Both the position numbers and the translations under genes were made by a program. Shown piece by piece: positions 5,836-62,654 of a DNA stretch of 64,000 bases. Origin of the DNA: a bacterium (lineage in GTDB: Bacteria; Patescibacteriota; Minisyncoccia; Moranbacterales; GWC2-37-73); the NCBI GenBank assembly GCA_037140955.1, contig JBAXDL010000005.1, positions 12,334 to 76,333 of the forward strand. Direction: 5' to 3'. Within the stretch, counting starts at the first letter, position 1. Each line of letters starts with the position of its first letter. The notes beneath the pieces are model-generated. The model had not been told where the DNA came from. It made no database searches and was given only the letters and a program-made list of their open reading frames with translations.

Positions 5836-6408
5836 AAAATGGAAATTATTAAAAAAAATCTTGGATTGATTGTCTTCACATTTTTTGTGATTGTTTTTGC
5901 GCTTGGATATGTGCAATATGTTTTGCTGCATGGAGGATTGGAATATGTGAAAAATAGATCACTTTTGGGAAAATTCGGAAAATCACTTGGCACGTTTGGT
6001 TTTTTTGCTTTGGCTGTGGTTTATCTTCGCAGTGCACTGAAAATTATGATTCGCAGTGATGAATTTTGGAGCAGGTTAAAGCCTCTTGGTGTAGATGAAT
6101 TTTTGGATTTGAAAAAATGGTCAGTAAAAATTTTTATCATCCTGAACAAAACCCATGCTTATTTTGGAGTGCTGGCAATTGTTAGTATTTTTTTGCATTG
6201 TTATTTGACTGGTAGTTATCGGGACAATTTTTTGTTGCAAGTTGTGCTTGGCTTAATGCTTTTTGAGGGAATTTCTGGTTTTATTATGAGGTTTAAATAT
6301 TCTCCGGTTGAATTGAAAAAGAACGCACTTTTGATTCATCGTCAATTCGTGGTGGCAATACTGCTGCTTGTTTTTGGTGCTTTTGGGCACTTGCTGCTGG
6401 GAGACTGA
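5836..6408 (+). CDS. hypothetical integral membrane protein
   Basis: multiple hydrophobic helices; start chosen at internal ATG (MEIIKK); the longer ORF begins at 5803. Confidence 0.45.
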   Translation, partial: KMEIIKKNLGLIVFTFFVIVFALGYVQYVLLHGGLEYVKNRSLLGKFGKSLGTFGFFALAVVYLRSALKIMIRSDEFWSRLKPLGVDEFLDLKKWSVKIFIILNKTHAYFGVLAIVSIFLHCYLTGSYRDNFLLQVVLGLMLFEGISGFIMRFKYSPVELKKNALLIHRQFVVAILLLVFGAFGHLLLGD

Positions 6409-19293: not shown

Positions 19294-19335
19294 AGATATT
19301 GCATGTTTGGTTTTTTTGATATAAAATTAAATTTA

Positions 19336-19471
19336 TGAATCCGGTAGTGAAAATTCAAAAGAAGGGAATATCGGATTGTTTCTGGAATGTTTTTAATCCA
19401 ATATGTAGCATTTTTATATAATTAAGAATTTTTTGAGCAAAGCTCATTTGAATTTCTACTACCGGATGAAT
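19336..19471. repeat. about 22-bp imperfect inverted repeat bracketing the secD 5' leader and start codon
   Basis: atgaatccggtagtgaaaattc ... gaatttctactaccggatgaat; the right arm contains the secD ATG. Confidence 0.5.
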
Positions 19472-21142
19472 ATAAAGAAAAAATTACAATTAAAATTTGG
19501 TGGGATTATTGTTTTGGCTTTAATGTGCGGCTTGTTTTCATATCCTCAAATTGTTAGCAAGGCTCCTCCTGTCTATGATTTTTTCAACAAGTTCAAGCTC
19601 AATCTCGGTCTTGATTTGCAAGGGGGATTTCATTTGGAATATAAGGCTGATGTTTCTAATATTGATTCAACAAAAGTTGCCGAGGCTATGCAAGGTGCGC
19701 AGACCGTCATCGAAAGACGAGTTAACGCTTTTGGTGTTGGCGAGCCATTGGTTCAAACAGCAAAAAGTGGACAAGAGAATCGTATTATTGTTGAATTGCC
19801 AGGAATAAAGGATATAGAAGAGGCAAAAACAAAAATCAAAGATGCTCCATTGTTGGAATTTAAAGAAGAAGGTCCGGTTGATGCTCAAGTTCAGCAAATG
19901 TTTGATCAAGCAAATCAGCAGGCAAAAGAAAAGGCTGCAAAAATTCTTGATGAGGTGAAAAATGGTGGTGATTTTGCGCAACTTGCAAAAGACAATAGTG
20001 AGGATCCAGGCTCAAAAGACAAAGGTGGTGATTTGGACTTTGTGAAAAAAGGAGCCTTTGTTCCTGAATTTGATAAAGTTTTGTTTGATTCAAATTTGAA
20101 GAATGGGGATATTTATCCTGATTTGGTTGAATCAACTTATGGATGGCATATTATCAAATTCATTGAATCTCGCGGTGAGGGTGCTGATTTGGAAGTTCAT
20201 GCTCAGCATATTCTTTTTTTGAAAAAAGATCCTTCTCAATATGATCAGTTCAAATATCAAACAACAGGATTGACTGGAAAAAATTTGAAAAGTGCTACTG
20301 CGCAATACTCTCAAGGACAAGGCCTTGGTGAGCCAGAGGTTGCTTTGCAATTTGATGAAGAAGGAACAAATCTTTTTGCTGAGTTGACCAAGAAAAACCT
20401 TGGCAAAAAAATAGCCATCTTTCTTGATGGAGAGTTGCAAATAGCTCCAACTGTTCAGGTTGAAATTACTAATGGTCAAGCGGTTATTACCGGAAATTAT
20501 ACTTTCAAAGAAGCAAAGGATATTTCTGACAGATTGAATCAAGGAGCGCTTCCAGTTCCTTTGACCTTGGTTGGACAACAGAGTGTTGAGGCAACTCTTG
20601 GGGCTGATTCGCTGCGAAGCATTTTGATTGCTGGTGCAATTGGACTTGGTGCAGTGATTGTCTTCATGCTTATCTTCTATCGCTTCTTGGGATTGGTAGC
20701 CTCACTGGCTTTGCTTATTTATACTGTTGCAATGATTACGCTTTTCAAGATGACTGGAATTACTTTGACACTTTCTGGTATTGCAGGGTTTGTGCTTTCA
20801 ATTGGAATGGCGGTGGACGCAAATATTTTGATTTTTGAAAGAACAAAAGAAGAAATTAGAGGTGGTCGCTCAATTGCAAACTCATTGGAAGAAGGATTCA
20901 AGCGTGCTTGGACTTCAATTCGTGATGGAAATGTTTCTTCATTGCTCACTTCTGGAATTTTGTACTTGATGGGAACTGGATTTGTGAAAGGATTTGCGGC
21001 TGCACTTTTCATTGGAGTAGTGGTTTCCATGTTTACTGCGGTGGTGATTACTCGTACAATGCTTAAGTTTATTATTAGTGATTGGATTCATGGAAGAACA
21101 TGGATGGTTGGAGTTAGAAAAAAGGATATTAAAAATGGATAA
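19466..21142 (+). CDS. secD: protein-export membrane protein SecD with an embedded parvulin (PpiC/PrsA-type) PPIase domain
   Basis: SecD P1 start 'GLDLQGGFH', C-terminal TM bundle 'GMAVDANILIFER'; internal segment 'NGGDFAQLAKDNSEDPGSKDKGGDLDFV...STYGWHIIK' matches the parvulin fold; the track ORF starts at an alternative TTG (19433). Confidence 0.85.
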   Translation: MNIKKKLQLKFGGIIVLALMCGLFSYPQIVSKAPPVYDFFNKFKLNLGLDLQGGFHLEYKADVSNIDSTKVAEAMQGAQTVIERRVNAFGVGEPLVQTAKSGQENRIIVELPGIKDIEEAKTKIKDAPLLEFKEEGPVDAQVQQMFDQANQQAKEKAAKILDEVKNGGDFAQLAKDNSEDPGSKDKGGDLDFVKKGAFVPEFDKVLFDSNLKNGDIYPDLVESTYGWHIIKFIESRGEGADLEVHAQHILFLKKDPSQYDQFKYQTTGLTGKNLKSATAQYSQGQGLGEPEVALQFDEEGTNLFAELTKKNLGKKIAIFLDGELQIAPTVQVEITNGQAVITGNYTFKEAKDISDRLNQGALPVPLTLVGQQSVEATLGADSLRSILIAGAIGLGAVIVFMLIFYRFLGLVASLALLIYTVAMITLFKMTGITLTLSGIAGFVLSIGMAVDANILIFERTKEEIRGGRSIANSLEEGFKRAWTSIRDGNVSSLLTSGILYLMGTGFVKGFAAALFIGVVVSMFTAVVITRTMLKFIISDWIHGRTWMVGVRKKDIKNG

Positions 21143-21171: not shown

Positions 21172-22074
21172 ATGTTTAATATAATTTCAAAAACTAAATA
21201 CGCATATATTTTTTCTGGCATTGTTTCTATTGCCAGCATTTTGAGTCTTCTTGTTTGGGGATTGAAATATGACATTGATTTTACTGGTGGAACTCGCATG
21301 GTTGTCAAATTTGCGCAAGAAACTCCGGCCAAGGATGAGGTGATTGATGCTTTGAAGGGTTTTGATTTGAAAAGTTTGACCCTGCAAGGCATCGAAGGAA
21401 ATTCAATGGTGATTCGTTATGCCTCAGAGGATGACAAATTGAATTCTGATGTTTGGCAGGCAGTGGTGACAAAATATCCCGAAGCTACTCAATCAAGTGT
21501 TGATTTTTTCAATTCTTCTGTTTCAGGGGAGCTTAAATCAAAATCCGTTAATGCTCTCATCTTGGCAATTTTGGCTATTATGGCATATATTGCATGGGCT
21601 TTTCGCAAAGTGTCACATCCGGTTGAATCATGGAAATATGGCGCTGGAGCTGTGATTGCCTTGGTGCATGATGTTTTGATTACAACTGGATTTTTTTCCT
21701 TTCTGGGTCATTTTTATGGCGTAGAAATTGGAATTCCATTTATTGCGGCATTGCTTACCATCTTGGGTTTTTCAGTACATGACACTATTGTGGTGTATGA
21801 CAGAACTAGGGAAAACTTGCTGCGAAGTTCACACAAAACTCCTTTTCCTGAGGTTGTGAATCAAAGTTTGAATGAAACATTGGTTCGCTCAATAAACACC
21901 TCGCTTACTGTAATCATAACCTTGTTGGCAATCTATCTTTTTGGGGGAGTTGCGATTAAGTATTTTGCCTTGGCGCTGCTTGTTGGTGTTACCTTTGGAA
22001 CATATTCCTCAATTTTTATTGCGACTGCTTTATTGGTGACAAGTTATGAGTTGACGATAAAATATAAAAAATAA
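21172..22074 (+). CDS. secF: protein-export membrane protein SecF
   Basis: 'GIDFTGGT', 'VVYDRTREN' SecF motifs. Confidence 0.9.
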   Translation: MFNIISKTKYAYIFSGIVSIASILSLLVWGLKYDIDFTGGTRMVVKFAQETPAKDEVIDALKGFDLKSLTLQGIEGNSMVIRYASEDDKLNSDVWQAVVTKYPEATQSSVDFFNSSVSGELKSKSVNALILAILAIMAYIAWAFRKVSHPVESWKYGAGAVIALVHDVLITTGFFSFLGHFYGVEIGIPFIAALLTILGFSVHDTIVVYDRTRENLLRSSHKTPFPEVVNQSLNETLVRSINTSLTVIITLLAIYLFGGVAIKYFALALLVGVTFGTYSSIFIATALLVTSYELTIKYKK

Positions 22075-22215
22075 TTTAAATATAAATAATTTCGAAGTCT
22101 GAATTTTGAATTTTGAATCAAATCTGAATGATATAATGTTTTAAATATTAAAAATTAAATCATTGGAAATTAATTCAAAATTCAAAATTAGAAATTCAAA
22201 ATTAATAAAATCTAT

Positions 22216-22494
22216 ATGGGAATTTTAGATGTATTTGGCAAAAAAGATGACAAGAAAAAAAGTGCAAATCCGCTTGATCCTGAGAACATGGGATTCATGC
22301 AAAAAATGGCCATGAAAAAGTTGGAAAAAATGAGTCCAGCTGAAAGAGAGGCTTTGATGCGAAAAGTTATGACTCCTGAAAATATTCAAAAAAATAAGGA
22401 TGATATTCTCAAAACTCTTGAACAAATGAAAAAATCAGGACAGATGAATGATCATCAAATTTTTGAAGCAAAAAAGAGATTGGGAATTTTGTAG
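22216..22494 (+). CDS. small Lys/Met-rich hypothetical protein
   Basis: 92-aa ORF immediately after secDF. Confidence 0.45.
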   Translation: MGILDVFGKKDDKKKSANPLDPENMGFMQKMAMKKLEKMSPAEREALMRKVMTPENIQKNKDDILKTLEQMKKSGQMNDHQIFEAKKRLGIL

Positions 22495-27226: not shown

Positions 27227-28291
27227 ATGGAAAAAATAACAGATAAAAACAGCCAAGCAGTTGAGTCTGAAAAGGCGATATTTTCAGATGCACTGAAAAG
27301 TACCGTGAAAGATTTTTCACAAAGAAGTCAGGAGATAATTTTTTCTCGCTGGGGGGTTTTCAGTTCTCATTCTTTGACTTTGGAAGAGATTGGAAAAAAA
27401 TATCAAATTACTCGTGAGAGAGTTAGGCAAGTTATTCGCGAGGTTTTGAAAAAAGTTAAAGAAAAAAAGGATCAAACTGTTTTTCGTGAAATAGAAGAAA
27501 AAATTATTTTGGCGCTTAGAAATAATGGTGGTATAATGGAGGAGCAAAAACTTTTGTCTGTGCTTGTGGGAAAGCAAAAAAGTGAGCAAGCAGCAGTTTC
27601 ATTTTTTCTGGAATGTTTTGATAGTATTTGCAAAAATCAAATCAAGGGAGAACTTAAAGTTGCATATTCTTTGCCAAGTTTTGAAATTGAAAAATGGCGA
27701 AATGTGAAAAATGATTTGATTTTGGTTTTGAAACAACAGGCAAAACCTCTTTCAGTTGAAAAACTTTTTGAACTGACAAAAGCAAAGTCTGGTGAATTTG
27801 ATTTGAACATTGAAACATTCACACAATATCTTGAAATTTCAGAAGAGATCAAACAAAACACTTTTGGAAAATGGGGAATTGCAAAATGGAAAGAAATTTC
27901 TCCAAAAGGAACGCGTGAAAAGGCTTATCTTGTTTTGAAAGAGGTAGCCAAGCCTTTGCATTTTCGGGATATTGCCAAAAAGATTGATCAATATCATTTG
28001 AACAAAAAGAAAACTCATGCTCAAACAGTGCACAATGAATTGATCAAGGACAAAAATTTCGTGTTGGTGGGAAGGGGGATCTACGCGCTGGTTGAATGGG
28101 GATATCGCAGTGGAACAGTCAAGGATGTGATTGAAGAGATTTTGAAAAAAAATAAGGCTCCACTCAGCAAGGAAGAAGTACTAGAAATGGTTTTAAAAAT
28201 CAGACGTGTGAAAAAATCGACTATTGTGATAAACTTGAATAACTACTTTGCCAAATCAAAAACAGGCACATATTCAATTAAAAAATCTTAA
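27227..28291 (+). CDS. DNA-binding protein with N-terminal sigma-70 region-4 HTH and C-terminal HARE-HTH domain
   Basis: 'LTLEEIGKKYQITRERVRQVIREVLKK' (sigma r4-like); C-terminal 'FVLVGRGIYALVEWGY' matches the HARE-HTH motif (RpoE-delta N-domain type). Confidence 0.6.
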   Translation: MEKITDKNSQAVESEKAIFSDALKSTVKDFSQRSQEIIFSRWGVFSSHSLTLEEIGKKYQITRERVRQVIREVLKKVKEKKDQTVFREIEEKIILALRNNGGIMEEQKLLSVLVGKQKSEQAAVSFFLECFDSICKNQIKGELKVAYSLPSFEIEKWRNVKNDLILVLKQQAKPLSVEKLFELTKAKSGEFDLNIETFTQYLEISEEIKQNTFGKWGIAKWKEISPKGTREKAYLVLKEVAKPLHFRDIAKKIDQYHLNKKKTHAQTVHNELIKDKNFVLVGRGIYALVEWGYRSGTVKDVIEEILKKNKAPLSKEEVLEMVLKIRRVKKSTIVINLNNYFAKSKTGTYSIKKS

Positions 28292-28311
28292 AGTCACTCA
28301 AAAACAAAAAA

Positions 28312-29589
28312 ATGGACATTCTTCTAACTTCACTAGCTCAAATACCTGAAGATTTAAAAATGGTGTCGCAAGTAATAAATCACACTTGGTTTATTATTTT
28401 GCCACCACTTTTTTATTTTATCTTTAAAATTTTTTGGATTACACATATTCAAAATGCTTATTGGGCCTCTGCTAGTTGGGTTTTGTTGGAGCTTATTCCT
28501 CCAAAAAATATTGAAAAAAGCCCTAAGCCAATGGAGGCACTTTTTGTTGGCTTTGCAGGTGTGGAAAAAGGTTTTGACGTGGCTGAAACATATATCAGTG
28601 GAATGTTTGCTGATTCAATGAGTTTGGAGATGGTTAGTGATCAAGGGACAGTGCATTTTTACATCCGCAGCATGAAAAAATATCGCCATTTGGTGGAGGC
28701 TTCGCTCTATGCTCAATATCCCGATGTCGAAATCATTGAAGTTCCTGATTATGTTAATGATGTTCCCAAGGTTATTCCTAATGAAAAATGGGATTTGTGG
28801 GGAGCTGACATTGCATTTCAAAGTGATCCAGCTTATCCAATCAAAACGTATAAAGCTTTTGAAGAAGAAATTTCTGGCACCATGATTGACCCTTTGTCGA
28901 GTTTGTTGGAAGTTATGGGTAAATTGGGTCCAGGACAGCAGATGTGGCTACAGTGGGTGATTTCTCCAACATCTCCAGCTTGGGCTGGAAAAGAAGGGAA
29001 AAAATTGACTGACAAATTGAAGGGAAAAGAAAAGAAAGTCGTTTCTGTTCCGGAAAGATTGGTTAAGGATTTTTTGGATGTTGTCACAAACCTTTTCAAC
29101 GCCTTGCTAGGGCCGGTTGAATTTGCTGCAGAAAAGAAAAAAGAAGAAGCAGCATTGGACACAAGACTTTCTCCGGGAGAAAGAGATGTGCTCAAGGCCG
29201 TGGAGGATAATCTTGGAAAATTGCAATTTTACACCAAGGGAAGATTTATATATCTAGGTCGACGAGAAAATTATGACAAAGCGCTTGGAATTTCATCTTT
29301 TTGGGGAAGTCTCAAGCAATTTAATGACAACAATCTTAACAGCATGAAGCCTGATGGTGATTCAAAAACTTTTGCAAATTATTTCAACCAACGAAGTCGT
29401 TTGCGTTATCGTCAACGAAAAATATTAAGACGCTATCGCACTAGAAACAGGGATGGTGCAACATTGGTCTTTAGTACTGAAGAATTGGCCACACTTTTTC
29501 ATTTCCCTGATATGAACGTGATGGCTCCATCATTCACGCGCGTGGAAGCGAAGCGTGGTGGTGCTCCTTCAAATTTGCCGATTGAATAA
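28312..29589 (+). CDS. membrane-anchored hypothetical protein (two N-terminal TM helices), partner of the downstream ATPase
   Basis: 425-aa ORF 20 nt after the previous gene and 40 nt before the next; no recognisable catalytic motif. Confidence 0.55.
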   Translation: MDILLTSLAQIPEDLKMVSQVINHTWFIILPPLFYFIFKIFWITHIQNAYWASASWVLLELIPPKNIEKSPKPMEALFVGFAGVEKGFDVAETYISGMFADSMSLEMVSDQGTVHFYIRSMKKYRHLVEASLYAQYPDVEIIEVPDYVNDVPKVIPNEKWDLWGADIAFQSDPAYPIKTYKAFEEEISGTMIDPLSSLLEVMGKLGPGQQMWLQWVISPTSPAWAGKEGKKLTDKLKGKEKKVVSVPERLVKDFLDVVTNLFNALLGPVEFAAEKKKEEAALDTRLSPGERDVLKAVEDNLGKLQFYTKGRFIYLGRRENYDKALGISSFWGSLKQFNDNNLNSMKPDGDSKTFANYFNQRSRLRYRQRKILRRYRTRNRDGATLVFSTEELATLFHFPDMNVMAPSFTRVEAKRGGAPSNLPIE

Positions 29590-29629
29590 AGAGATAAATT
29601 AAAAATTAACTACAACGCTAGTTAACCAT

Positions 29630-31726
29630 ATGGCTCAAAAAAACGAAATTGCATTTTTTGCAAAAACAAATTTTAGAAATCAAGAAAGAGTTTTCGGCAT
29701 CAAAACTGATGATCGCACTCGACACATGTATATCATTGGAAAGACCGGTATGGGAAAAACAAACCTGCTGGAAAATTTGGTGGTGCAGGACATTAGAAAC
29801 GGTCATGGTATTTGTTATATTGATCCACATGGTGACACGGCTGAAAAATTGCTTAGAGCGATTCCCGCTGAACGCATTAATGATGTTATTTATTTGAATC
29901 CTTCTGATCAAAATTATCCTTTGGCTTTCAACGTGATGGAATCGGTTGATCCTGACTATCGTCACTTGGTGGCATCGGGCTTGATTGGTGTTTTCAAAAA
30001 AATCTGGGCTGATTCCTGGGGACCACGCTTGGAGTATATTTTGCGTAATGCAATTTTGGCACTTTTGGAATATCCTGGGAGCACCTTGCTGGGTGTGACC
30101 AGGATTTTGGTGGACAAGAAATATCGCGAAAGAGTGGTTGAAAAGGTGACTGATCCGGTGATTAGGCAATTTTGGGTGGATGAATTTCCAAAATGGAGTG
30201 ACAAGGTTTTGCAAGAAGTTGTTTCTCCGATTCAAAACAAGGTTGGACAATTCTTGTCATCTTCTTTGATTCGAAACATTGTTGGTCAAACAAAATCTTC
30301 TTTTGACATTCGAAATGCAATGGACACGCAAAAGATTTTGATCATCAATCTTTCCAAAGGAAGAATTGGTGAAGACAATGGTGCGCTTTTGGGAGCCATG
30401 ATGATCACCAAGATTCAATTGGCAGCCATGGGACGCGTGGACATAGCGGAGGCTGATCGTAAAGATTTTTATTTATATGTTGATGAGTTTCAAAATTTTG
30501 CCACAGAATCTTTTGCCAACATTTTGTCTGAAGCTCGAAAATATCGCTTGAATTTGATTTTGGCAAATCAATATATCACTCAAATTGATGAAAAAGTTCG
30601 TGATGCTATTTTTGGTAATGCTGGCACGATCATTTCTTTTCGTGTGGGTGCGATGGATGCTGAATTTTTGGAAAAAGAATTTATGCCAGTTTTTGTGCAA
30701 AATGACATCGTGAATTTGCCAAAATATAACATATATTTGAAGCTCATGATTGATGGAATTGCAGGTGATGCTTTTTCTGCTACTGTTTTGCCACCTGTTT
30801 ACATCGGTGACACGGCTGAAAATGAGGAAAAGATTATTGCAGCTTCGCGTGAGCGTTATGCTTCTAGTAAGGAAGAAGTTGAAGACAAAATTTCACGTTG
30901 GGCTGGTGTGATGCCTGCAGCAGGCTTTACTACTGTCAACAAGGCTCCTGAGCAAGTTGCTCAAAATCCAAATAATATTAAATATGTTCATCCGGTGAGC
31001 AGCCCTCAGCAAAGATCAAATTCAATACAGAATTTTGCTCCAAAAGCAGTTGCTGCCCCAGTTGCACTAAAAGCTCAGCAACCAGTGCGAAATGTTGCCT
31101 CAAGCGCTCCTGTAAGCGCTCCAGTGCCTATTGCTGCTCCTTTGTCTCAAAAATCAGTGCAGCGGCCAGTTGAAGAACAAAAAAAGCCCTATGTGCAGGA
31201 TGATTTGGGGGAATATAATGAAATTCCAAAAAATGAGGCTGTACAATCAATTGCAGCTGAGCCAGAAGAAAATCATGACTATTATGTGAAGCCAATTGAT
31301 GATCGGCCAAAATTTGATGCTGTTTGCGACATGTGCGCGGACAATATTCAAATTCCTTTTGCTCCAGATGGAAAAAGACCAACTTTTTGCAAGGATTGCT
31401 TGAAAGAATATCAACGCATGAATGCTAAGGAGAAATTGAAGCAGGAAGAGAAAATAAAGCGACAGCAAGAAGAAGCGCAGGTTCAAGAGGTGCCAACTGC
31501 TTCGCCAGCAAAAACATATCCAAAAAAGTTTGAAAGCAAGTCTGCTACAAATCAAGCGCCAAGACAAGAAAGAAAAACCGAACACAAGGCTTTTGTTTCT
31601 AAGGATAGGCCCATGTCACTTTCGCAAATGCAGCATATTGCACCCAAGCAATTCAAGCCAACTCGCGTCCGTCCACAAATAAACTTGAGTGAAGTGAGAG
31701 AAATGATTAATAAAAACAAAGAATAG
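29630..31726 (+). CDS. FtsK/HerA-superfamily P-loop ATPase (T4 coupling-protein / DUF87-like) with low-complexity linker and C-terminal C4 zinc ribbon
   Basis: 'RHMYIIGKTGMGKT' Walker A in T4CP-like context, 'IDPHGD', Walker B 'YVDEFQNF', 'RKYRLNLILANQ'; C-terminal 'CDMCADN...FCKDC'. Confidence 0.7.
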   Translation: MAQKNEIAFFAKTNFRNQERVFGIKTDDRTRHMYIIGKTGMGKTNLLENLVVQDIRNGHGICYIDPHGDTAEKLLRAIPAERINDVIYLNPSDQNYPLAFNVMESVDPDYRHLVASGLIGVFKKIWADSWGPRLEYILRNAILALLEYPGSTLLGVTRILVDKKYRERVVEKVTDPVIRQFWVDEFPKWSDKVLQEVVSPIQNKVGQFLSSSLIRNIVGQTKSSFDIRNAMDTQKILIINLSKGRIGEDNGALLGAMMITKIQLAAMGRVDIAEADRKDFYLYVDEFQNFATESFANILSEARKYRLNLILANQYITQIDEKVRDAIFGNAGTIISFRVGAMDAEFLEKEFMPVFVQNDIVNLPKYNIYLKLMIDGIAGDAFSATVLPPVYIGDTAENEEKIIAASRERYASSKEEVEDKISRWAGVMPAAGFTTVNKAPEQVAQNPNNIKYVHPVSSPQQRSNSIQNFAPKAVAAPVALKAQQPVRNVASSAPVSAPVPIAAPLSQKSVQRPVEEQKKPYVQDDLGEYNEIPKNEAVQSIAAEPEENHDYYVKPIDDRPKFDAVCDMCADNIQIPFAPDGKRPTFCKDCLKEYQRMNAKEKLKQEEKIKRQQEEAQVQEVPTASPAKTYPKKFESKSATNQAPRQERKTEHKAFVSKDRPMSLSQMQHIAPKQFKPTRVRPQINLSEVREMINKNKE

Positions 31727-31735
31727 TACTAGTTT

Positions 31736-31767
31736 AAAAAACAACCATCTTATGGTTGTTTTTTTTA
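31736..31767 (+). terminator. strong rho-independent terminator closing the 27227-31726 operon
   Basis: aaacaaccat/atggttgttt stem followed by a T8 run. Confidence 0.7.
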
Positions 31768-31772
31768 AACTA

Positions 31773-31801
31773 TTGACACAATATCAGCATTAATCTATAT
31801 T
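31773..31801 (+). promoter_or_regulatory. sigma70-type promoter (TTGACA-17-TATATT)
   Basis: consensus -35 box, 17-nt spacer, -10 TATATT upstream of the 31914 gene. Confidence 0.45.
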
Positions 31802-31913
31802 GTATTATTGGTTGCAATGATGCAATGCAATGTCCCTTGTTCTTTGATATTTTCGCTGTTATCTGTCAACCCTAAACTGAAGTTGCCCTGCCAAGCAGGG
31901 AAAGGAATTTACC

Positions 31914-32435
31914 ATGAGTATTGTAAATTGGATTGCGTTTGTTGGCCTCTTTTTTGTTATTTTTGCTGGAAATGTTTGGATTGATAAATCAATCATGAAA
32001 AAATGGGTGTTAAAAAGAGGAATAGGTTCGTTTTTCCTCTATGCAGCGTTTGCATTCCTACTTTCCAATTTTTCTGATATTGGTTCATATCTGCACGTTG
32101 AAAAAAATGTGCCATTTGAATGGAAAGAGAATATTTTGGCAAAACAAAGCATCGAAGAAGTTTCTATGAGCAAAGAGAGAGAAGGACATTTATTTTTGGG
32201 TTGTGGAAGTTTTCGTGAACGTGAAACGTTTCGCTACACGGCCAATAATGAAGATGGCTCATATCATCGCGACAAGGTGTACACTTCTGAGTGTGTGGTC
32301 CTGAAGGCTGAAGATGAGAATAGCCAACGGATTGAAAAGGTGCAGGTGGTGCGAGAATACAAGAATAAATCTGACAAGAGTTGGTTCGGGACCAAGATGG
32401 ACAAGAAGGATTCGTTCTATAGGATATATCTATAG
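31914..32435 (+). CDS. hypothetical membrane protein
   Basis: 173-aa ORF with two N-terminal hydrophobic helices. Confidence 0.45.
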   Translation: MSIVNWIAFVGLFFVIFAGNVWIDKSIMKKWVLKRGIGSFFLYAAFAFLLSNFSDIGSYLHVEKNVPFEWKENILAKQSIEEVSMSKEREGHLFLGCGSFRERETFRYTANNEDGSYHRDKVYTSECVVLKAEDENSQRIEKVQVVREYKNKSDKSWFGTKMDKKDSFYRIYL

Positions 32436-32530
32436 GACAAAAAAGTGTAAGTAAATCGAGAGAGATTGAGTTTTAAGTGTGAGTGTTAGTAAATACAAGC
32501 ACTGAGCGTTAGATTAAGCAGCAGGGACCT

Positions 32531-32562
32531 AGAGGCATTGAAAATTCAATGCCTCTTTTTTA
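32531..32562 (+). terminator. rho-independent terminator
   Basis: agaggcattgaa/ttcaatgcctct stem followed by a T-run. Confidence 0.65.
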
Positions 32563-32607
32563 TAAAAATATTTTACAAATGGTGGCATTTCAAGGTAGCA
32601 TTAACAT

Positions 32608-33924
32608 ATGAAACAAAAAACAGCACTCGAAATTTTGAAAATGGGACATAATGTTTTTTTGACTGGTCCAGCCGGTTCTGGCAAAACATTTTTGCTAAAT
32701 GAGTATATTGATTATCTCAAGAAAAATGGCATTGGCGTGGCAGTGACTGCTTCCACTGGGATTGCAGCGACACACATGAATGGTCAAACAATTCATTCAT
32801 GGTCAGGCATGGGGATCAGTGATGTTTTCTTGGAGGATGATTTTGCTAAACTAAAAAAAAGATATTATCATTGCGAACGCTTTAGGCACACCAAAGTGCT
32901 TATTATTGATGAAGTTTCAATGCTTCACGCTCATCAGTTGGACATTGTGAACAATATTTGCAAAAACTTTAAAAACCCAAAACTTCCTTTTGGTGGCTTG
33001 CAGGTTATTTTGTGTGGAGATTTTTTTCAATTGCCGCCGGTTGTGCGAAACGGAAAAAAGGCGCAATTTGTGATTGAATCTGAGGCTTGGATTGAAATGG
33101 ATCCAAAAATTTGTTACTTGGAAGAGCAGCACAGGCAAGAGGATTCTGCTATGTTGAAAATTTTGGCTGATATTCGAGGTAGAGCTTGCGACGAAGAGAC
33201 TATTGATCTTATTTGTTCCCGCCAAAACAAAAATATTAAAAATGGTATTACACCAACAAAGCTGTACACTCATAATGCTAACGTTGATGGTATTAATAAT
33301 TTGGAGCTTAAAAAAATAAATGAAGAACCTAAAATTTTTCAAATGACAACTGCTGGCATTGAACAATTGGCGGCGGTGGTGAAGAAGGGTTGTCTTGCTC
33401 CTGAAACATTGACGTTGAAAAAAGGAGCTGTGGTGATGTTTGTGAAAAACAATTTTGAAAAAGGTTATGTTAATGGAACTCTTGGAAAAATTAAGGATTT
33501 TGATCAAAGCGGGATGCCAATCGTGAAAACCTTTGCCGGCAAAGACATTGTGGCTCTGGCAGAAAAATGGTCAATTGAGGAGGATGGTGAGATGTTGGCA
33601 TCGGTTAGTCAAATTCCGCTGCGCTTGGCCTGGGCGATTACTGTGCACAAAAGTCAGGGAATGACGCTTGATGCTGTTGAAATGGATCTGGGACGTTCTT
33701 TTGAATATGGCATGGGATATGTTGCTCTTTCGCGAGTGAGGACACTTGATGGTATAAAATTGCTAGGAATAAATGATATTGCTTTGGAGGTCAATCCAAT
33801 AGTATTTGAACTGGACAAGGTGCTCAAGGAATTGTCGAATGCGAATTCAAAAGCGACCTTGAAAATGAAAATTAGTGAAAAAAAATCTTTGCAAAAAAAG
33901 TTTTTAGAAAAATGCATAAACTAG
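32608..33924 (+). CDS. Pif1/RecD-like SF1B DNA helicase (AAA_30 + UvrD_C_2 architecture)
   Basis: Walker A 'GPAGSGKTF', 'VLIIDEVSML', 'ILCGDFFQLPPV', 'AITVHKSQGMTLD'. Confidence 0.8.
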   Translation: MKQKTALEILKMGHNVFLTGPAGSGKTFLLNEYIDYLKKNGIGVAVTASTGIAATHMNGQTIHSWSGMGISDVFLEDDFAKLKKRYYHCERFRHTKVLIIDEVSMLHAHQLDIVNNICKNFKNPKLPFGGLQVILCGDFFQLPPVVRNGKKAQFVIESEAWIEMDPKICYLEEQHRQEDSAMLKILADIRGRACDEETIDLICSRQNKNIKNGITPTKLYTHNANVDGINNLELKKINEEPKIFQMTTAGIEQLAAVVKKGCLAPETLTLKKGAVVMFVKNNFEKGYVNGTLGKIKDFDQSGMPIVKTFAGKDIVALAEKWSIEEDGEMLASVSQIPLRLAWAITVHKSQGMTLDAVEMDLGRSFEYGMGYVALSRVRTLDGIKLLGINDIALEVNPIVFELDKVLKELSNANSKATLKMKISEKKSLQKKFLEKCIN

Positions 33925-39809: not shown

Positions 39810-39863
39810 TTAATTTTTTTTGATGATGATAGTTTGACTTATTGTTGCGAATTTTTAAAATAT

Positions 39864-39941
39864 TTATGCGGATATTGTTTTTTTGCGGCTTCCGTGTGAA
39901 CAAAGTGAACGAAAGGCAAGTAAAAAAACAATATCTGCATA
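39864..39941 (+). repeat. intergenic structured repeat element, copy 1 (terminal inverted repeats and conserved core)
   Basis: ttatgcggatattgttttttt | gcggcttccgtgtgaacaaagtgaacgaaaggcaagt | aaaaaaacaatatctgcataa. Confidence 0.8.
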
Positions 39942-39973
39942 AAATGAAGTTGTATAATTGATAAAATTTTAGT

Positions 39974-42098: not shown

Positions 42099-42124
42099 AA
42101 AAGTGAGAATATGTTGTTGCTAAA

Positions 42125-42208
42125 TTTTCATACTGATATTGTTTTTTTGTGGCTTCCGTATGAGCGCAGTGAATGAAAGGCAAGTAAAAAATAATATCAG
42201 TATGAAAA
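42125..42208 (+). repeat. intergenic structured repeat element, copy 2 (between xseA and xseB)
   Basis: ttttcatactgatattgttttttt | gtggcttccgtatgagcgcagtgaatgaaaggcaagt | aaaaaataatatcagtatgaaaa. Confidence 0.8.
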
Positions 42209-42243
42209 TTAAAAAATTAAATTCATAAGCTCTAAAAAAATAT

Positions 42244-44022: not shown

Positions 44023-44048
44023 GTTTTTGAATATATTTTTCTGGTTTC

Positions 44049-44120
44049 ATGTAGATATTGTTTTTGCGGTTTACATGTGAACGCAGTGAGTGAAAGGTAA
44101 GCAAAAAAATAATTTAGCAT
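44049..44120 (+). repeat. intergenic structured repeat element, copy 3 (degenerate arms)
   Basis: atgtagatattgttttt | gcggtttacatgtgaacgcagtgagtgaaaggtaagc | aaaaaaataatttagcat. Confidence 0.65.
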
Positions 44121-44163
44121 AAAAAAGTTAATTTTATACGCTTTATAATTTATAAATAAATTT

Positions 44164-53001: not shown

Positions 53002-53748
53002 ATGAACGAACGCCAAGAAAAAATTTTATCAACCATCATTGAAGAATACACCAAAACAGCTATTCCTGTTGGTAGTGGAGTTTTGGTTGGTAAATATAAA
53101 TTCAAGGTTAGCACTGCCACCATTCGAAATGACATGATGGTTTTGGAAAATGATGGATATTTGTATCAGCCACATATTAGTGCAGGAAGAATTCCAACAG
53201 ACAAGGGTTATCGATATTTTGTGGAAGAGGTGATGAAGGATAAGGTTCTCTCGAAAGAACAGCAACAAGAAATGCAGCGTGAGTTTTTGAAGCTAAAAGC
53301 TCAAAACACACGTTTGACCAGAACAACTGCAAAATTACTTTCTAATATTAGTGGAAATTTTGCAATTAGCGGCTTGATTGATAATGACGAATTTTCTGAT
53401 TTTGGAATGAGGGAATTGATGGAAGAGCCAGAATTTAAGGAATTGGATGAGATGTGTCGCTTGGTTGAAATGCTTGACTATGTTGATGAGAAATTTGATC
53501 AGCTCACTAAAGACATTAAGGATGGCGAGACAAAAATCTTTATTGGCAAGGAGAATCCCATAGATGGAACGGCAAATTGCTCTATGATCGTGTCGCCATA
53601 TCGCTTGAGCTCTGGCGAAAAAGGAATTTTGGCACTAATTGGACCAAAGCGTATGGAATATGCAAAAAACAAATCAATGATTGAATATGTGAAAAAATTA
53701 TTAGGAGCAAGCATGGTGATTATAATTATGATAAATATTTATTTATAA
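53002..53748 (+). CDS. hrcA: heat-inducible transcription repressor HrcA (short, 248 aa)
   Basis: N-terminal wHTH 'ILSTIIEEYTKTAIPVGSGVL' and the CIRCE context. Confidence 0.85.
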   Translation: MNERQEKILSTIIEEYTKTAIPVGSGVLVGKYKFKVSTATIRNDMMVLENDGYLYQPHISAGRIPTDKGYRYFVEEVMKDKVLSKEQQQEMQREFLKLKAQNTRLTRTTAKLLSNISGNFAISGLIDNDEFSDFGMRELMEEPEFKELDEMCRLVEMLDYVDEKFDQLTKDIKDGETKIFIGKENPIDGTANCSMIVSPYRLSSGEKGILALIGPKRMEYAKNKSMIEYVKKLLGASMVIIIMINIYL

Positions 53749-57900: not shown

Positions 57901-57980
57901 CTCCTGCTGATATTGTTTTTTTGCTTGCCTTTTATTCGCTTCGCTCATACGGAAGCCGCAAAAAACAACATCAGTAGGAG
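57901..57980 (-). repeat. intergenic structured repeat element, copy 4 (inverted orientation)
   Basis: ctcctgctgatattgttttttt | gcttgccttttattcgcttcgctcatacggaagccgc | aaaaaacaacatcagtaggag; the core is the reverse complement of copies 1-3. Confidence 0.8.
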
Positions 57981-59135: not shown

Positions 59136-59162
59136 TTAGCACTCAGTCATGGGGATTGCTAA
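59136..59162 (+). promoter_or_regulatory. CIRCE operator upstream of dnaJ
   Basis: TTAGCACTC-N9-GATTGCTAA, followed by a TATAAT -10 box. Confidence 0.75.
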
Positions 59163-59217: not shown

Positions 59218-60300
59218 ATGGCAAAGGATTATTATGATATTTTAGGGGTAAATAAAAACTCTACTGATGATGAAATAAAAAAGGCCTATCGAAAATTGGC
59301 ACACAAATATCATCCTGACAAGGCTGGTGGTGACAATGAGAAATTCAAGGAGATAAATTCGGCCTATCAGGTTCTTTCTGACAAGTCAAAGCGTCAACAA
59401 TATGACCAATTTGGCTCTGGTTTTGAACAGCGAGGTGGTGGATTTAGCGGAGGAGGCTTTAGCGGATTTTCATCGGCTGGTGGGCAAGATTTTGATTTTG
59501 GAGAGGGATTTGAGGACATTTTTTCTAATATTTTTGGCGGTGGAGGAGGTTCGCGAAATGCTGACATGCGCAGAGCTGGCAACGATATTCAGGTTGACAC
59601 TGAAATCACTTTTGAGGAAATGGTTGCTGGTGCTGTTCGGGAAATAAAATTATATCAAAAATTTCTTTGCGACTCTTGTCACGGTTCTGGCGGAGAGGCT
59701 GGATCAAAAGAGGAAGCTTGTCCAACTTGTCATGGTTCTGGTCAGGTGCACAAAAGTGTGAGCAGTTTTTTTGGCTCATTTTCACAGGCCTATGTTTGTC
59801 CAACTTGCCAAGGTATGGGAAAAACTTTTTCTCAAAAATGTCGCAAATGTCATGGAGATGGAAGGGTCAAACAGGAACGTAAGATTTCAGTGAAGATCCC
59901 TGCTGGAATTTCAAATGGACAAACAATTTCAATGCAAGGAGAGGGAGAGGCTGGTGAGCGCGGAGCAAAAAATGGAAATTTGTTTATTGTTGTGCATGTT
60001 ATTGCTCATGATTTGTTCACTCGCGAAGGAAATAATATTCTTTCAATTGAGCATATTCCATTTTCAAAAGCAGCGCTTGGTGACAAGATTGATGTGAAAA
60101 CCATAGATGAAACAGTGAAAATGAAAATTCCAGCTGGAACTCAGTCGGGAGAATTGTTTCGCATTAAGGGCAAAGGCGTGCCAAGTTTGGGGCGAGATTC
60201 TCGTGGTGATCATTTGGTAAAAATCGTTGTTGATGTTCCAAGAAACACTTCAAGAGAGCAAAAAAGAGTAATTGAGCAATTGCAGCAAGCAGGTTTGTAG
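59218..60300 (+). CDS. dnaJ: molecular chaperone DnaJ
   Basis: J-domain 'DYYDILGV...HPD', G/F region, four CxxCxGxG zinc motifs; start at MAKDYY. Confidence 0.95.
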
Positions 60301-60366
60301 TATAAATATTTTGTTTTTGTGAAAAGCTTCATCCTAAGGGGTGGGCTTTTTTTATTTATTATTATC

Positions 60367-60470
60367 GCATCAAGACTATTTGTTTTTGGGCACGTCACTG
60401 GTCGAAATCTATGACCACTGACTCTTGATTACTTTCATAATCAACGGCCCAAAAACAAATAGTCTTGATG
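60367..60470. repeat. perfect 25-bp inverted repeat enclosing two internal hairpins (104 nt)
   Basis: gcatcaagactatttgtttttgggc ... gcccaaaaacaaatagtcttgatgc; inner cactggtc/gaccactg and ttgatta/taatcaa stems. Confidence 0.75.
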
Positions 60471-60596
60471 CTAATGTGTGGTGTAATCTTGCTGTGTTTA
60501 TCATACATCACTATAACTATAAAAAAGAAGACAAAAAAACATAAAAGCGGTATAATTAAAAAGTAAATTGCAAAAAATAAAACTAAAATTAAAAAT

Positions 60597-62654
60597 ATGT
60601 TGAATAATCTTTTTGCTCCAAAATCAATCGCCATTGTTGGTGCTTCAAGCAAAAAAGGGAAAATAGGAACAGTGCTGGTTGATAATATTGCAAAGCTGGG
60701 ATATAAGGGCACGGTTTTCTATGTTAATCCGTCTTATAAGATTCTGAAGTTAAAGCGCTGCTACAGCGAATTGCATGATATTGAAAAACATGTTGACTTG
60801 GCAATAATTGCCGTGCCAGCCAAATTTGTGAATGATGTTATTGAAAAAAGCGCACATAAAATAAAAAATTTTGTGGTCATTTCTGCTGGCTTTTCAGAGA
60901 CAAATGCTGATGGGGTCAAAAGGGAACAAGCACTTTTGAAATTGGCAAAAAAACATGATTTGAATATTTTGGGTCCAAATTGTTTGGGCTTTATTTCAAC
61001 GGCAATAAAATTGAATGCTTCTTTTGCCGGTGGGATGCCTAATGCTGGAAATATTGCTTTTGTTTCTCAATCAGGGGCTTTGGCAGTGGCACTTATGGAC
61101 AGGGCGCAACAAGAACATATTGGTTTTTCTAATGTTATTTCTGTTGGAAACAAAATGCAACTTGATGAATCGCTATTGCTTGAATATCTTGCCAAGGATA
61201 AACAAACTAAGGTGATTGGAATGTATCTTGAAGGCATTGCTGATGGACAGAGGTTTATTGAAACAGCCAGGAGAATATCAAAAATAAAACCAATTGTAAT
61301 TCTAAAGGCCGGAAAAACAGAGAAGGCGCAAAAGGCTATTTCTTCTCACACTGGTGCCTTGGCTGGAAGTGATGATATTGTTGAGATTGCCTTTGAAAAA
61401 GCAGGTGTCATTAGGTCTAATAATTTAGAAGAATTTTTCGACTTGCTAACTTTGATTTCATTCGAGGAACCACCCAAGAATCAAAAAGTGGCCGTGATCA
61501 CCAATGCCGGCGGGGCTGGTGTACTCACTACAGATGCTTTTTTGGGAAAAGAGCTAGTGTTGGAAGATTTTTCAAAAAAAATAAAAGAGCAAATGCAAAA
61601 ATTTTTGCCAGAGGAATCATCACTTGAAAATCCTGTTGATTTACTTGGCGACGCAGCGGAAGACAGGTACAAGAATATTCTGGATGTTTTGAGTTTGCAA
61701 AAAATAGGCACAATTGTTTCAGTGCTTACCCCGCAACAACAAACTCCAGTTGAGAAAATAACAGATGTTATAATTGAAAACAAAAAACAAAGCCCAGCTG
61801 TGGTTGCAACAATTTTCATCGGAGGAACAAGGGTTAACAAATCGATTGAAAAATTAAAGAAAAATTCAATTTTAAATTTTGCTAATCCCGACAGTGCAAT
61901 TTTGGCTCTGGATAAATATTACAAATGGAGTGTTTTCAAAAAAGAAAAAGAAAGTGATGATGTTTGGCAGGCAAATGTTGCTCGTCAAAAACAAGTTGCC
62001 AAAATTATCATCGATGCCAAAGCTGAAAAAAGAACAGCACTATTCTTCTCTGAAGCAAGTTTGGTGATGAAGAAATATGGAATTTTGTCAACTGAACATT
62101 TTGAAATTATTCCTGGTCAAAATTTGCCAGAAATTAAAAATTTTCCAGTTGTGCTGAAAGTTGATAGTGATAAAGTGTTGCACAAGTCAGATAGACAGGC
62201 ATTAATACTTAACATTAAAGACAAAAATTCACTTGAAATAGCTGTAAGCAAGTTGAGAATTGATTTTGCTGAGGAGCGTTTGCTTGTGCAAACAATGCAG
62301 GACAAGCAAGTAGAAATTATTTTAGGCATAAAACGCGATAGTATTTTTGGTCCAGTTGTGGTCTATGGACTTGGTGGTATTTATACTGAAATTTTCAAAA
62401 TGGTTAACTTTATGATTCCTCCAATGTCGCTGGATAGTATTAAAAAGCAAATATTGAAAAGTAAAATAAGCTTCTTGTTTTTAGGTGCGCGTGGTCAAAA
62501 ACCCTATGACCTTGACGAATTTTCAAATGTTATTTTTGGGCTGATGAATTTTGCGCTTGAAAATGATGATGTACTTGAGTTTGATATTAATCCATTGTTT
62601 ATATATAATGATAAAAGAAAATCATGTGGAGTTGATATTAAAATAGTTATTTAG
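60597..62654 (+). CDS. ADP-forming acetyl-CoA synthetase (fused CoA-binding and ATP-grasp domains)
   Basis: 'IAIVGASSKKGKIG', 'ILGPNCLG', 'VSQSGAL' (succinyl-CoA-synthetase-alpha-like) plus C-terminal ATP-grasp. Confidence 0.85.
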   Translation: MLNNLFAPKSIAIVGASSKKGKIGTVLVDNIAKLGYKGTVFYVNPSYKILKLKRCYSELHDIEKHVDLAIIAVPAKFVNDVIEKSAHKIKNFVVISAGFSETNADGVKREQALLKLAKKHDLNILGPNCLGFISTAIKLNASFAGGMPNAGNIAFVSQSGALAVALMDRAQQEHIGFSNVISVGNKMQLDESLLLEYLAKDKQTKVIGMYLEGIADGQRFIETARRISKIKPIVILKAGKTEKAQKAISSHTGALAGSDDIVEIAFEKAGVIRSNNLEEFFDLLTLISFEEPPKNQKVAVITNAGGAGVLTTDAFLGKELVLEDFSKKIKEQMQKFLPEESSLENPVDLLGDAAEDRYKNILDVLSLQKIGTIVSVLTPQQQTPVEKITDVIIENKKQSPAVVATIFIGGTRVNKSIEKLKKNSILNFANPDSAILALDKYYKWSVFKKEKESDDVWQANVARQKQVAKIIIDAKAEKRTALFFSEASLVMKKYGILSTEHFEIIPGQNLPEIKNFPVVLKVDSDKVLHKSDRQALILNIKDKNSLEIAVSKLRIDFAEERLLVQTMQDKQVEIILGIKRDSIFGPVVVYGLGGIYTEIFKMVNFMIPPMSLDSIKKQILKSKISFLFLGARGQKPYDLDEFSNVIFGLMNFALENDDVLEFDINPLFIYNDKRKSCGVDIKIVI

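Follow-up and report, generated by a model that had tools for sequence, protein, structure and literature searches.

What is the long hairpin that separates dnaJ from the downstream acetate--CoA ligase gene in this Moranbacteria genome: the product of a mobile element, the gene of a small RNA, or a recombination site? The source organism is a Candidatus Moraniibacteriota (CPR) bacterium, and the window, namely the whole 64,000-nucleotide stretch of its DNA that was analysed, carries at 60367-60471 a 105-nt three-way-junction palindrome whose minus strand is the one matched by the covariance models described below. The left TIR-like arm (60367-60391, GCATCAAGACTATTTGTTTTTGGGC) is 25 nt long and fully complementary to the right one (60447-60471), its exact reverse complement; the two arms pair 25/25 around a 55-nt spacer, and the inner 15 nt of the left arm (TATTTGTTTTTGGGC) are the portion common to other family members. 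On the plus strand, the spacer contains an inner hairpin at 60394-60422 (GTCACTGGTC/GACCACTGAC, 10 bp, one C.C mismatch, 9-nt loop) and another at 60425-60444 (TTGATTA/TAATCAA, 7 bp, 6-nt loop), which form a three-way junction via 2-nt linkers in the predicted fold of both strands. Read on the minus strand, the former is family hairpin 2 (GUCAGUGGUC-AUAGAUUUC-GACCAGUGAC), the stem of which covaries among copies while its 9-10-nt loop (A..GA..UU) is kept, and the latter is family hairpin 1 (UUGAUUAU-GAAA-GUAAUCAA), capped by a GNRA tetraloop and containing one U.G pair. The initial annotation had described a perfect 25-bp inverted repeat enclosing two stem-loops in a three-way-junction-like structure, and both points hold; its start at 60367 was also right, but the element ends at 60471 and not at 60470, the spacer measures 55 rather than 54 nt, the total is 105 rather than 104 nt, and the dnaJ-ACS gap is 296 rather than 300 nt. 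Its suspicion that the minus-strand ORF 60395-60712 is an artefact is borne out, as this ORF is not called in an independent assembly and overlaps the start of the ligase gene.

The inverted repeat is real, and neither chance nor an assembly artefact explains it, because it folds far better than its shuffled counterparts, the arm has no second match and an independent assembly is identical. Specifically, the whole element folds with an MFE of -56.2 (plus strand) and -60.4 kcal/mol (minus strand), corresponding to z -11.5 and -12.1, respectively (0/200 shuffles as good), and the 55-nt spacer folded alone reaches z -4.7 and -5.3 (0/1000 shuffles as good). Moreover, no other occurrence of the arm with up to three mismatches is present in the window (0 expected), and the independent Logan assembly L001 (SRR7053542) shows 100% identity over the whole intergenic spacer.

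The local gene order is hrcA-grpE-dnaK and, further downstream, membrane protein-dnaJ-element-ACS-recJ-GT. The upstream neighbour dnaJ (59221-60300, plus strand) has its stop at 60300, and the ADP-forming acetate--CoA ligase family gene (ACS; 60597-62654, plus strand), whose closest homologue is only 74% identical, starts with the ATG at 60597. An intrinsic terminator of dnaJ, made of a stem plus a T-run, lies at 60328-60353 (plus strand; called by the scan at 60328-60345), and the ACS promoter at 60528-60556 (plus strand; AAGACA-17-TATAAT), its (G)TATAAT box being kept in relatives about 40-65 nt 5' of the ACS ATG. The element starts 14 nt past the terminator and ends 57 nt before the -35 box, resulting in the order terminator-element-promoter with the element upstream of the ACS promoter. 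ARAGORN detects no tRNA or tmRNA in the window. A CIRCE-like operator (TTAGCACTC-N9-GATTGCTAA) is located at 59136-59162 directly upstream of dnaJ, in the same window as hrcA (53002-53748), and its position implies that dnaJ starts at the ATG 59221 and not at the ORF start 59149.

Exact and pairwise searches covered several collections. The arm 21-mer CAAGACTATTTGTTTTTGGGC has no exact match in 596 Gb of GTDB species representatives or in IMG/VR viral contigs, and a single JGI metagenome match falls within a coding gene and is ascribed to chance. The element has no blastn match in phage and plasmid collections, three core sequences have none in viral contigs, and the ACS upstream spacers of six relatives contain nothing alignable by blastn; an 8-mer (CATCAAGA) common to the window and the L003 spacer is also attributable to chance, as about three such matches are expected. 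A comparison with Rfam families, suggested in the initial annotation, gave no match at the gathering score of Rfam 15 in the window or in the related loci L003, L011, L014, and L017. The top sub-threshold matches, MIR2630 (33.5 bits, gathering 144) and MIR837 (28.8 bits, gathering 117), are plant or animal miRNA precursors and were discarded as generic long-hairpin noise.

Homology to elements elsewhere is evident from covariance models and not from pairwise alignment. A scan of related loci for long inverted repeats revealed a 118-nt element (L003a) in L003 (JAAXUC010000009), directly after recJ, with the architecture of the window element and GCAT...ATGC ends in common, although the pairwise alignment of the two is not significant (local p 0.05-0.3). 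A profile search located a second L003 copy (L003b) in the spacer separating recJ from a response-regulator gene (RR); over the alignment columns, L003a and L003b show 95% identity, and three pair changes are compensated. A covariance model built from L003a and L003b only (R1) matches the window element over its full length (60362-60477, minus strand, 49.7 bits, E 3.2e-9), which is its best non-self match in 273 kb searched on both strands, the plus strand being unreported. R1 also retrieves a plus-strand copy in L020/L019, located downstream of the promoter and ahead of the ACS start codon, and three minus-strand copies, of which L035a (= L034) and L033 lie in the ACS/RR spacer and L035b in the RR/recJ spacer. 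Conversely, a model built from the five non-L003 copies (R2) recovers L003a and L003b at 76.5-76.9 bits (E about 1e-17) and scores the window element at 100 bits on the minus strand versus 36 bits on the plus strand. In total, seven distinct copies are present in five genomes, with L003 (within 2 kb) and L035 contributing two each, and this family is robust because R1 and R2 each recover copies left out of their own build. The copies are 105-155 nt long with arms of 25-31 bp, and the arms are imperfect in all but the window copy, the sole one in which they are flawless. No further copy is found by R2 with filters off in the 74.5 kb read of the source genome, which comprise the window and about 10.5 kb beyond it (L001, L010), and a loop-motif regular expression run across all loci returns only the already-known copies. 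The element is one copy of a previously undescribed hairpin-repeat family that resides in intergenic spacers of Moranbacteria (CPR).

On the model strand, a U-rich arm ending in ..UUUUUGGCC forms the 5' side and precedes hairpin 1, a GAG trinucleotide separates hairpin 1 from hairpin 2, and what comes after hairpin 2 (CGUGCCAAAAA; CGUGCC-AAAAA..) is the A-rich 3' arm. The single-stranded GAG, the CGUGCC, and the hairpin-2 loop, which spans 9-10 nt (AUAGAUUUC, AUUGAUUUUC, UUGAGCAUU), are conserved, and hairpin 1 bears a GNRA loop in 6/7 copies (GAAA in the window). In the alignment fitted to the model, 94.8% of the cells are paired and 26/41 pairs are changed on both sides, two values that none of 500 shuffles reaches, and pairing falls to about 50% in a slid-partner control. 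RNAalifold arrives unaided at the same fold with 25/42 pairs compensated, and 5/9 pairs covary in hairpin 2. Moreover, the MFE is lower on the model strand in 6/7 copies, and the wobble cells on this strand number 7 G.U versus 0 A.C, a bias that rests on about six independent events (two-sided p about 0.03). Two subfamilies coexist in L035, with the inner arm and the core in common and different outer arms.

A sister family is represented by four copies in the 64-kb window, three of them within 5 kb. Copy A (39863-39943, plus strand; R2 32.7 bits, E 2e-6, filters off) has a similar inner arm (GATATTGTTTTTTTGCGGC), copies B (42123-42210, plus strand) and C (57903-57978, minus strand) are detected by R2 with filters off at 27.1 and 23.6 bits, respectively, and copy D (44046-44123, plus strand) is degenerate and folds poorly (z -0.7). 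These copies lie upstream of a 199-aa ORF/xseA, xseB, and alaS and have a 36-nt conserved core (GGCTTCCGT.TGA.C..AG.GAA..AAAGGCAAG), an inner arm (GATATTGTTTTTTTG.GGC) that resembles that of the main element, and outer arms that are copy-specific, yet complementary within each copy; the family has no Rfam match. Judging from the weak detection by R2, the sister and main families may share an arm type.

Further repeats and islands were encountered in the window and in the related loci. In the window, a 29-nt 83% inverted repeat around 81 nt (19334-19472), with a multi-branched fold (z -5.1), starts just past a TATAAA-like box upstream of a secD-like gene; a 68-nt 75% AT-rich imperfect palindrome with AATTTTGAATTTTGAAT-type units (22074-22217) separates secF from a convergent GGDEF gene; and the region 27227-33924 has a mobile-element flavour, coding for a HARE-HTH/sigma70_r4 protein, a TrwB/TraG-like coupling protein (29630-31726), and a PIF1-like helicase (32608-33924), and may be the remnant of an integrated conjugative element, with no integrase seen. 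Among the related loci, about 200 non-coding nucleotides between L003a and the GT gene (L003 8358-8554), with short G+C-rich hairpins (CCTCGAGGCTTGCCTCGG, CCAGGGCTTGCCCTGG) and no Rfam match, belong to the same 327-nt recJ-GT insertion as L003a; an 80-nt hairpin in which tandem GTCACTNN units are combined with their inverse and which carries the annotation of a 40-aa gene (L014 14146-14225 = L015 14128-14207) is a palindromic repeat of a different kind in another Moranbacteria genome; and L033 contains a GATGAC-unit repeat (6150-6208). Lastly, the dnaJ-ACS spacer of L014 (4100-4260) harbours a long imperfect hairpin with a closing stem of about 28 bp and the apical loop UAUGAUUGUGUUGAUUGA, located in the ACS 5' UTR after the GGTATAAT box; it is missed by both R1 and R2 and may represent either a strongly diverged relative or an insertion of unrelated origin.

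The distribution of the seven copies bears on their mobility. They are spread over five spacers of a conserved cluster, namely dnaJ/ACS (window), promoter/ACS (L020), ACS/RR (L035a, L033), RR/recJ (L003b, L035b), and recJ/GT (L003a), and are antisense to their neighbours in 6/7 cases. The L020 copy, unlike the others, is inverted relative to the genes and lies in sense within the ACS 5' UTR, in the order promoter-element-ATG versus terminator-element-promoter in the window; the window and L020 copies are separate insertions in one spacer because they occupy opposite sides of the ACS promoter. Empty sites are found at several of these positions, as judged by comparing filled and empty spacers between species at 70-88% ACS identity. 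Specifically, the ACS/RR spacer is 8 nt long in L020 versus 140 nt in L034, recJ runs directly up to or into GT in the window, L011, L014, and L017, with 327 nt separating the two genes in L003, and the ACS upstream spacers of L003, L004, L005, L011, L017, and L031 measure 100-146 nt without the element. An apparent strain polymorphism between L034 and L035 was rejected, being actually an NN assembly gap; NN gaps fall exactly inside hairpin elements in two NCBI MAG records (L019 4323-4324, L034 about 8098).

Two copies are bracketed by perfect 5-bp target-site duplications, AATAT on both sides of the ends CAGAAGTTACGC...GCGTAAGTCCTA in L020 and CATTT on both sides of the same ends in L035b. 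These copies come from two species (84% ACS identity) and different loci and have their ends in common; since AATAT and CATTT agree at 3/5 positions, the statistical weight is that of 2 informative positions each. No recognisable target duplication is present at the window copy, L003b, L035a, or L033, and L003a displays an offset 9-nt repeat at its ends. The idea that the outer arm of L020 is an inverted native flank was ruled out, as L035b has the same outer arms at another locus of another species. A relic in L025 is a decayed half-copy, consisting of a 23-nt 3' end 22/23 identical to L035b; at the ACS promoter of this locus (L025 9900-9975), the GTTATAAT -10 box is enclosed by this 3' end (GTTGAGAAAATGCGTAAGTTCTA) on one side and by a 5' piece of partial complementarity (GATTTGCGCAT) on the other. 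Solo or IS-flanking ends, or a larger ORF between such ends, are not found in about 470 kb of loci, and Pfam scans detect no transposase in the window. A single IS110 occurs among the partial-genome loci, in L025 (5462-6655, minus strand; DEDD_Tnp_IS110 + Transposase_20), about 2 kb upstream of dnaJ in a GWE1_36_7-like genome; members of the IS110 family lack TIRs.

The explanation that best accommodates these observations, to which we assign a probability of roughly 65%, is that the window element is a MITE-like, non-autonomous mobile element specific to the lineage Candidatus Moraniibacteriota; a miniature mobile element is the most likely option when set against a dedicated sRNA gene or an attachment site. 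The initial annotation had listed a miniature transposable element among its candidates, and this one gains from the homologues in other spacers and orientations, the empty sites, and the two 5-bp target duplications. The decayed half-copy in L025, the degenerate copy D, and the presence of the sister family in the same window also count in its favour. It had also regarded its reading as endangered should relatives carry the same region without the repeat and with no associated transcript, and the region is indeed free of the repeat in most relatives. Of the traits that define MITEs, terminal inverted repeats, small size, the lack of an internal ORF, and presence/absence at orthologous spacers are all observed; copy number amounts to two copies each in L003 and L035 and one in the 74.5 kb of the window genome, and an autonomous IS with matching ends was not found among the partial genomes available. 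Mechanistically, the long terminal inverted repeats would pair as a 25-31-bp stem enclosing the conserved core, and the element would insert into AT-rich intergenic spacers by means of a transposase presumably supplied in trans. The window copy would have landed past the terminator of dnaJ and ahead of the ACS promoter, arriving, as we infer, by the same transposition mechanism as the other copies, and its perfect 25/25 arms would reflect either a recent copy or arm-to-arm correction. The terminator-promoter stretch that hosts it is probably transcribed solely by read-through, so the window copy is probably tolerated rather than used and is likely devoid of a dedicated host function.

Several observations stand against a MITE. 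The window copy has no recognisable target duplication despite its perfect arms, a single copy is seen in the 74.5 kb read of its genome, and neither the window nor the loci yielded an autonomous element or a transposase with matching ends. Moreover, the outer arms differ between the L035 subfamilies, an uncommon trait for termini recognised by a transposase, and the covarying inner hairpins together with the one-strand G.U bias are not predicted by a simple cut-and-paste TIR logic. Given the strand-specific features (GNRA loop, mismatches of the G.U type only, conserved hairpin-2 loop), one strand may also have a role as RNA or folded ssDNA, which would be compatible with mobility.

The alternative that survives best, unlikely as it is, holds that the element is, or carries, a structured small RNA transcribed from the minus strand, namely a three-way junction with a GNRA-capped hairpin and a conserved 9-10-nt loop able to base-pair with a target or to contact a protein. 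In this case, RNase III would process the RNA at the long stem, and this reading would also be compatible with mobility, as the element could carry the RNA. The strong covariation, with the same fold returned by RNAalifold unaided, argues for an RNA, and so do the strand-specific features that coincide on one strand (GNRA loop in 6/7 copies, lower MFE in 6/7, wobble pairs of 7 G.U to 0 A.C) and the conservation of the single-stranded GAG, of CGUGCC, and of the hairpin-2 loop. However, neither strand has a consensus promoter or terminator next to the element and the copies have no promoter or intrinsic terminator in common, where it should be considered that CPR promoters may differ from the consensus. 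Moreover, the positions are non-syntenic and most relatives are devoid of the element, its orientation is antisense to the neighbours in six copies and sense in the ACS 5' UTR of L020, and target duplications occur at two copies. RNA stems under selection are also not typically perfect, wobble-free 25-bp duplexes, transposon ends or hairpin-templated correction would make the arms covary as well, and no Rfam family matches. For the sRNA proposed in the initial annotation, the strand-specific structural conservation speaks in favour, and the lack of a common promoter or terminator and of syntenic positions against.

A related view, which we consider improbable, merges structure and mobility and treats the whole family not as a passive MITE but as a mobile, strand-specific structured nucleic acid, in which the three-way junction (GNRA-capped hairpin, 9-10-nt loop, invariant GAG/CGUGCC) is conserved and the sequence of the closing stem is free to vary. 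Such an element may work as RNA, for instance as a small RNA released by processing or as a guide or cofactor of the enzyme that moves it, or as a folded ssDNA substrate recognised by shape, and would be of a kind so far undescribed in CPR bacteria. The outer arms that are copy-specific and yet complementary, in the main family and in copies A-D of the sister family, would in this case derive from a hairpin-templated copying step.

Very little weight attaches to the possibility of a REPIN/REP-type element moved as folded ssDNA by a RAYT (IS200-like Y1) transposase. Its appeal lies in the general layout, with inverted arms of about 25 nt around a spacer, an overall length of about 100 nt, hairpin formation, and intergenic location (PMC3116915). 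The strand-specific features, and a recognition of structure over terminus, would also fit an ssDNA mechanism. However, the arms are not self-palindromic REPs, a GTAG-type motif is not evident, the density of copies in the source genome is low, and no Y1_Tnp/RAYT gene is found in the window or in any locus, all of these being partial genomes. Furthermore, 5-bp target duplications flank two copies, whereas IS200/IS605-type transposition is not known to make any.

Even less probable is a cis-regulatory function, either as an additional terminator or insulator of dnaJ or as an ACS leader. The position between a terminator and a promoter is suggestive, and long hairpins do occur within the ACS 5' UTR of L020 and L014, but dnaJ has its own terminator, no U-tract follows the element, the window element lies upstream of the conserved ACS promoter, and other copies of the family flank unrelated genes. 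An intrinsic terminator was rejected, as a T-run is missing past the stem on both strands and the scan finds the dnaJ terminator only; a retron ncRNA was likewise discarded, failing the defining features that were tested.

Scarcely credible, lastly, are the two remaining explanations. A local inverted duplication generated by replication template switching, with no mobile or functional history, would account for the perfect 25/25 arms, the missing target duplication, and the single copy in the genome stretch that was read, but the arms and the core have homologues in elements of four other genomes at other positions, and the element was therefore not made locally from its flank; template switching could nonetheless explain how the arms stay perfect. 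A substrate of site-specific recombination, be it an attachment site, an attC-like site, or an inverton with a flipping 55-bp core, would agree with inverted repeats flanking a short segment upstream of a gene and with the reversed orientation of the core relative to ACS in L020 versus the window, but no integrase, invertase, or tRNA is present in the window or in the loci, the core has no promoter-like site, the perfect stem has neither R/L boxes nor extrahelical bases as an attC should, and the L020 copy sits elsewhere in the spacer, past the promoter, which indicates a separate insertion and not a flip. The attachment or recombination site put forward by the initial annotation, for which an att-like core is also missing, is thus not sustained.

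Among known systems, the closest kind to the MITE-like element proposed here is the bacterial MITE. Prokaryotic MITEs are non-coding, AT-rich, intergenic elements that form a stable hairpin and whose terminal direct repeats fade with age (PMC10969869). As in Correia/CREE of Neisseria, RUP of pneumococcus, ERIC of enterobacteria, and QMITE2 of Coxiella, a length of 100-160 bp and TIRs of about 25 bp are combined with the absence of an ORF; moreover, the elements are AT-rich and intergenic, often lie just 3' of genes, form very stable hairpins, and occur in several copies in either orientation, with a presence that varies among related genomes. Correia elements additionally have the feature that RNase III cuts their transcripts at the paired repeats. 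In contrast to known MITEs, the family has no sequence match to any of them (element searched in phage and plasmid collections, arm in GTDB and IMG/VR), the duplication is of 5 bp and not TA, the parent IS was not found, and the host belongs to the CPR; furthermore, the conserved part is the inner arm with the covarying three-way junction, while the outer termini vary within one genome. REPINs are vertically persistent intergenic repeats with two inverted arms of about 25 nt, a spacer of tens of nucleotides, and a hairpin (PMC3116915). The present family diverges from them in its target duplications, the lack of a visible RAYT, arms that are not REP palindromes, and an apparently low copy number. 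The attC sites of integrons, 57-141 bp in length, are imperfect palindromes that are recognised when folded as single strands and in which structure is kept over sequence and function is strand-specific; the likeness concerns the design only, as the R''/R' core sites (RYYYAAC/GTTRRRY), extrahelical bases, an integron integrase, and a cassette array are all missing here. CPR/Patescibacteria genomes are small and usually regarded as poor in mobile DNA, and in the literature searched no MITE or REP-like repeat has been described in CPR, Patescibacteria, or Moranbacteria. A family of hairpin repeats gained and lost in the spacers of a conserved housekeeping cluster is a marker of recent genome dynamics in uncultured organisms; it explains assembly breaks, such as the NN gaps on hairpins in two NCBI MAGs, and represents a source of regulatory variation, with some copies in the ACS 5' UTR and others outside the promoter. 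If its strand-specific conservation proves functional, the family would constitute a new class of structured RNA or ssDNA.
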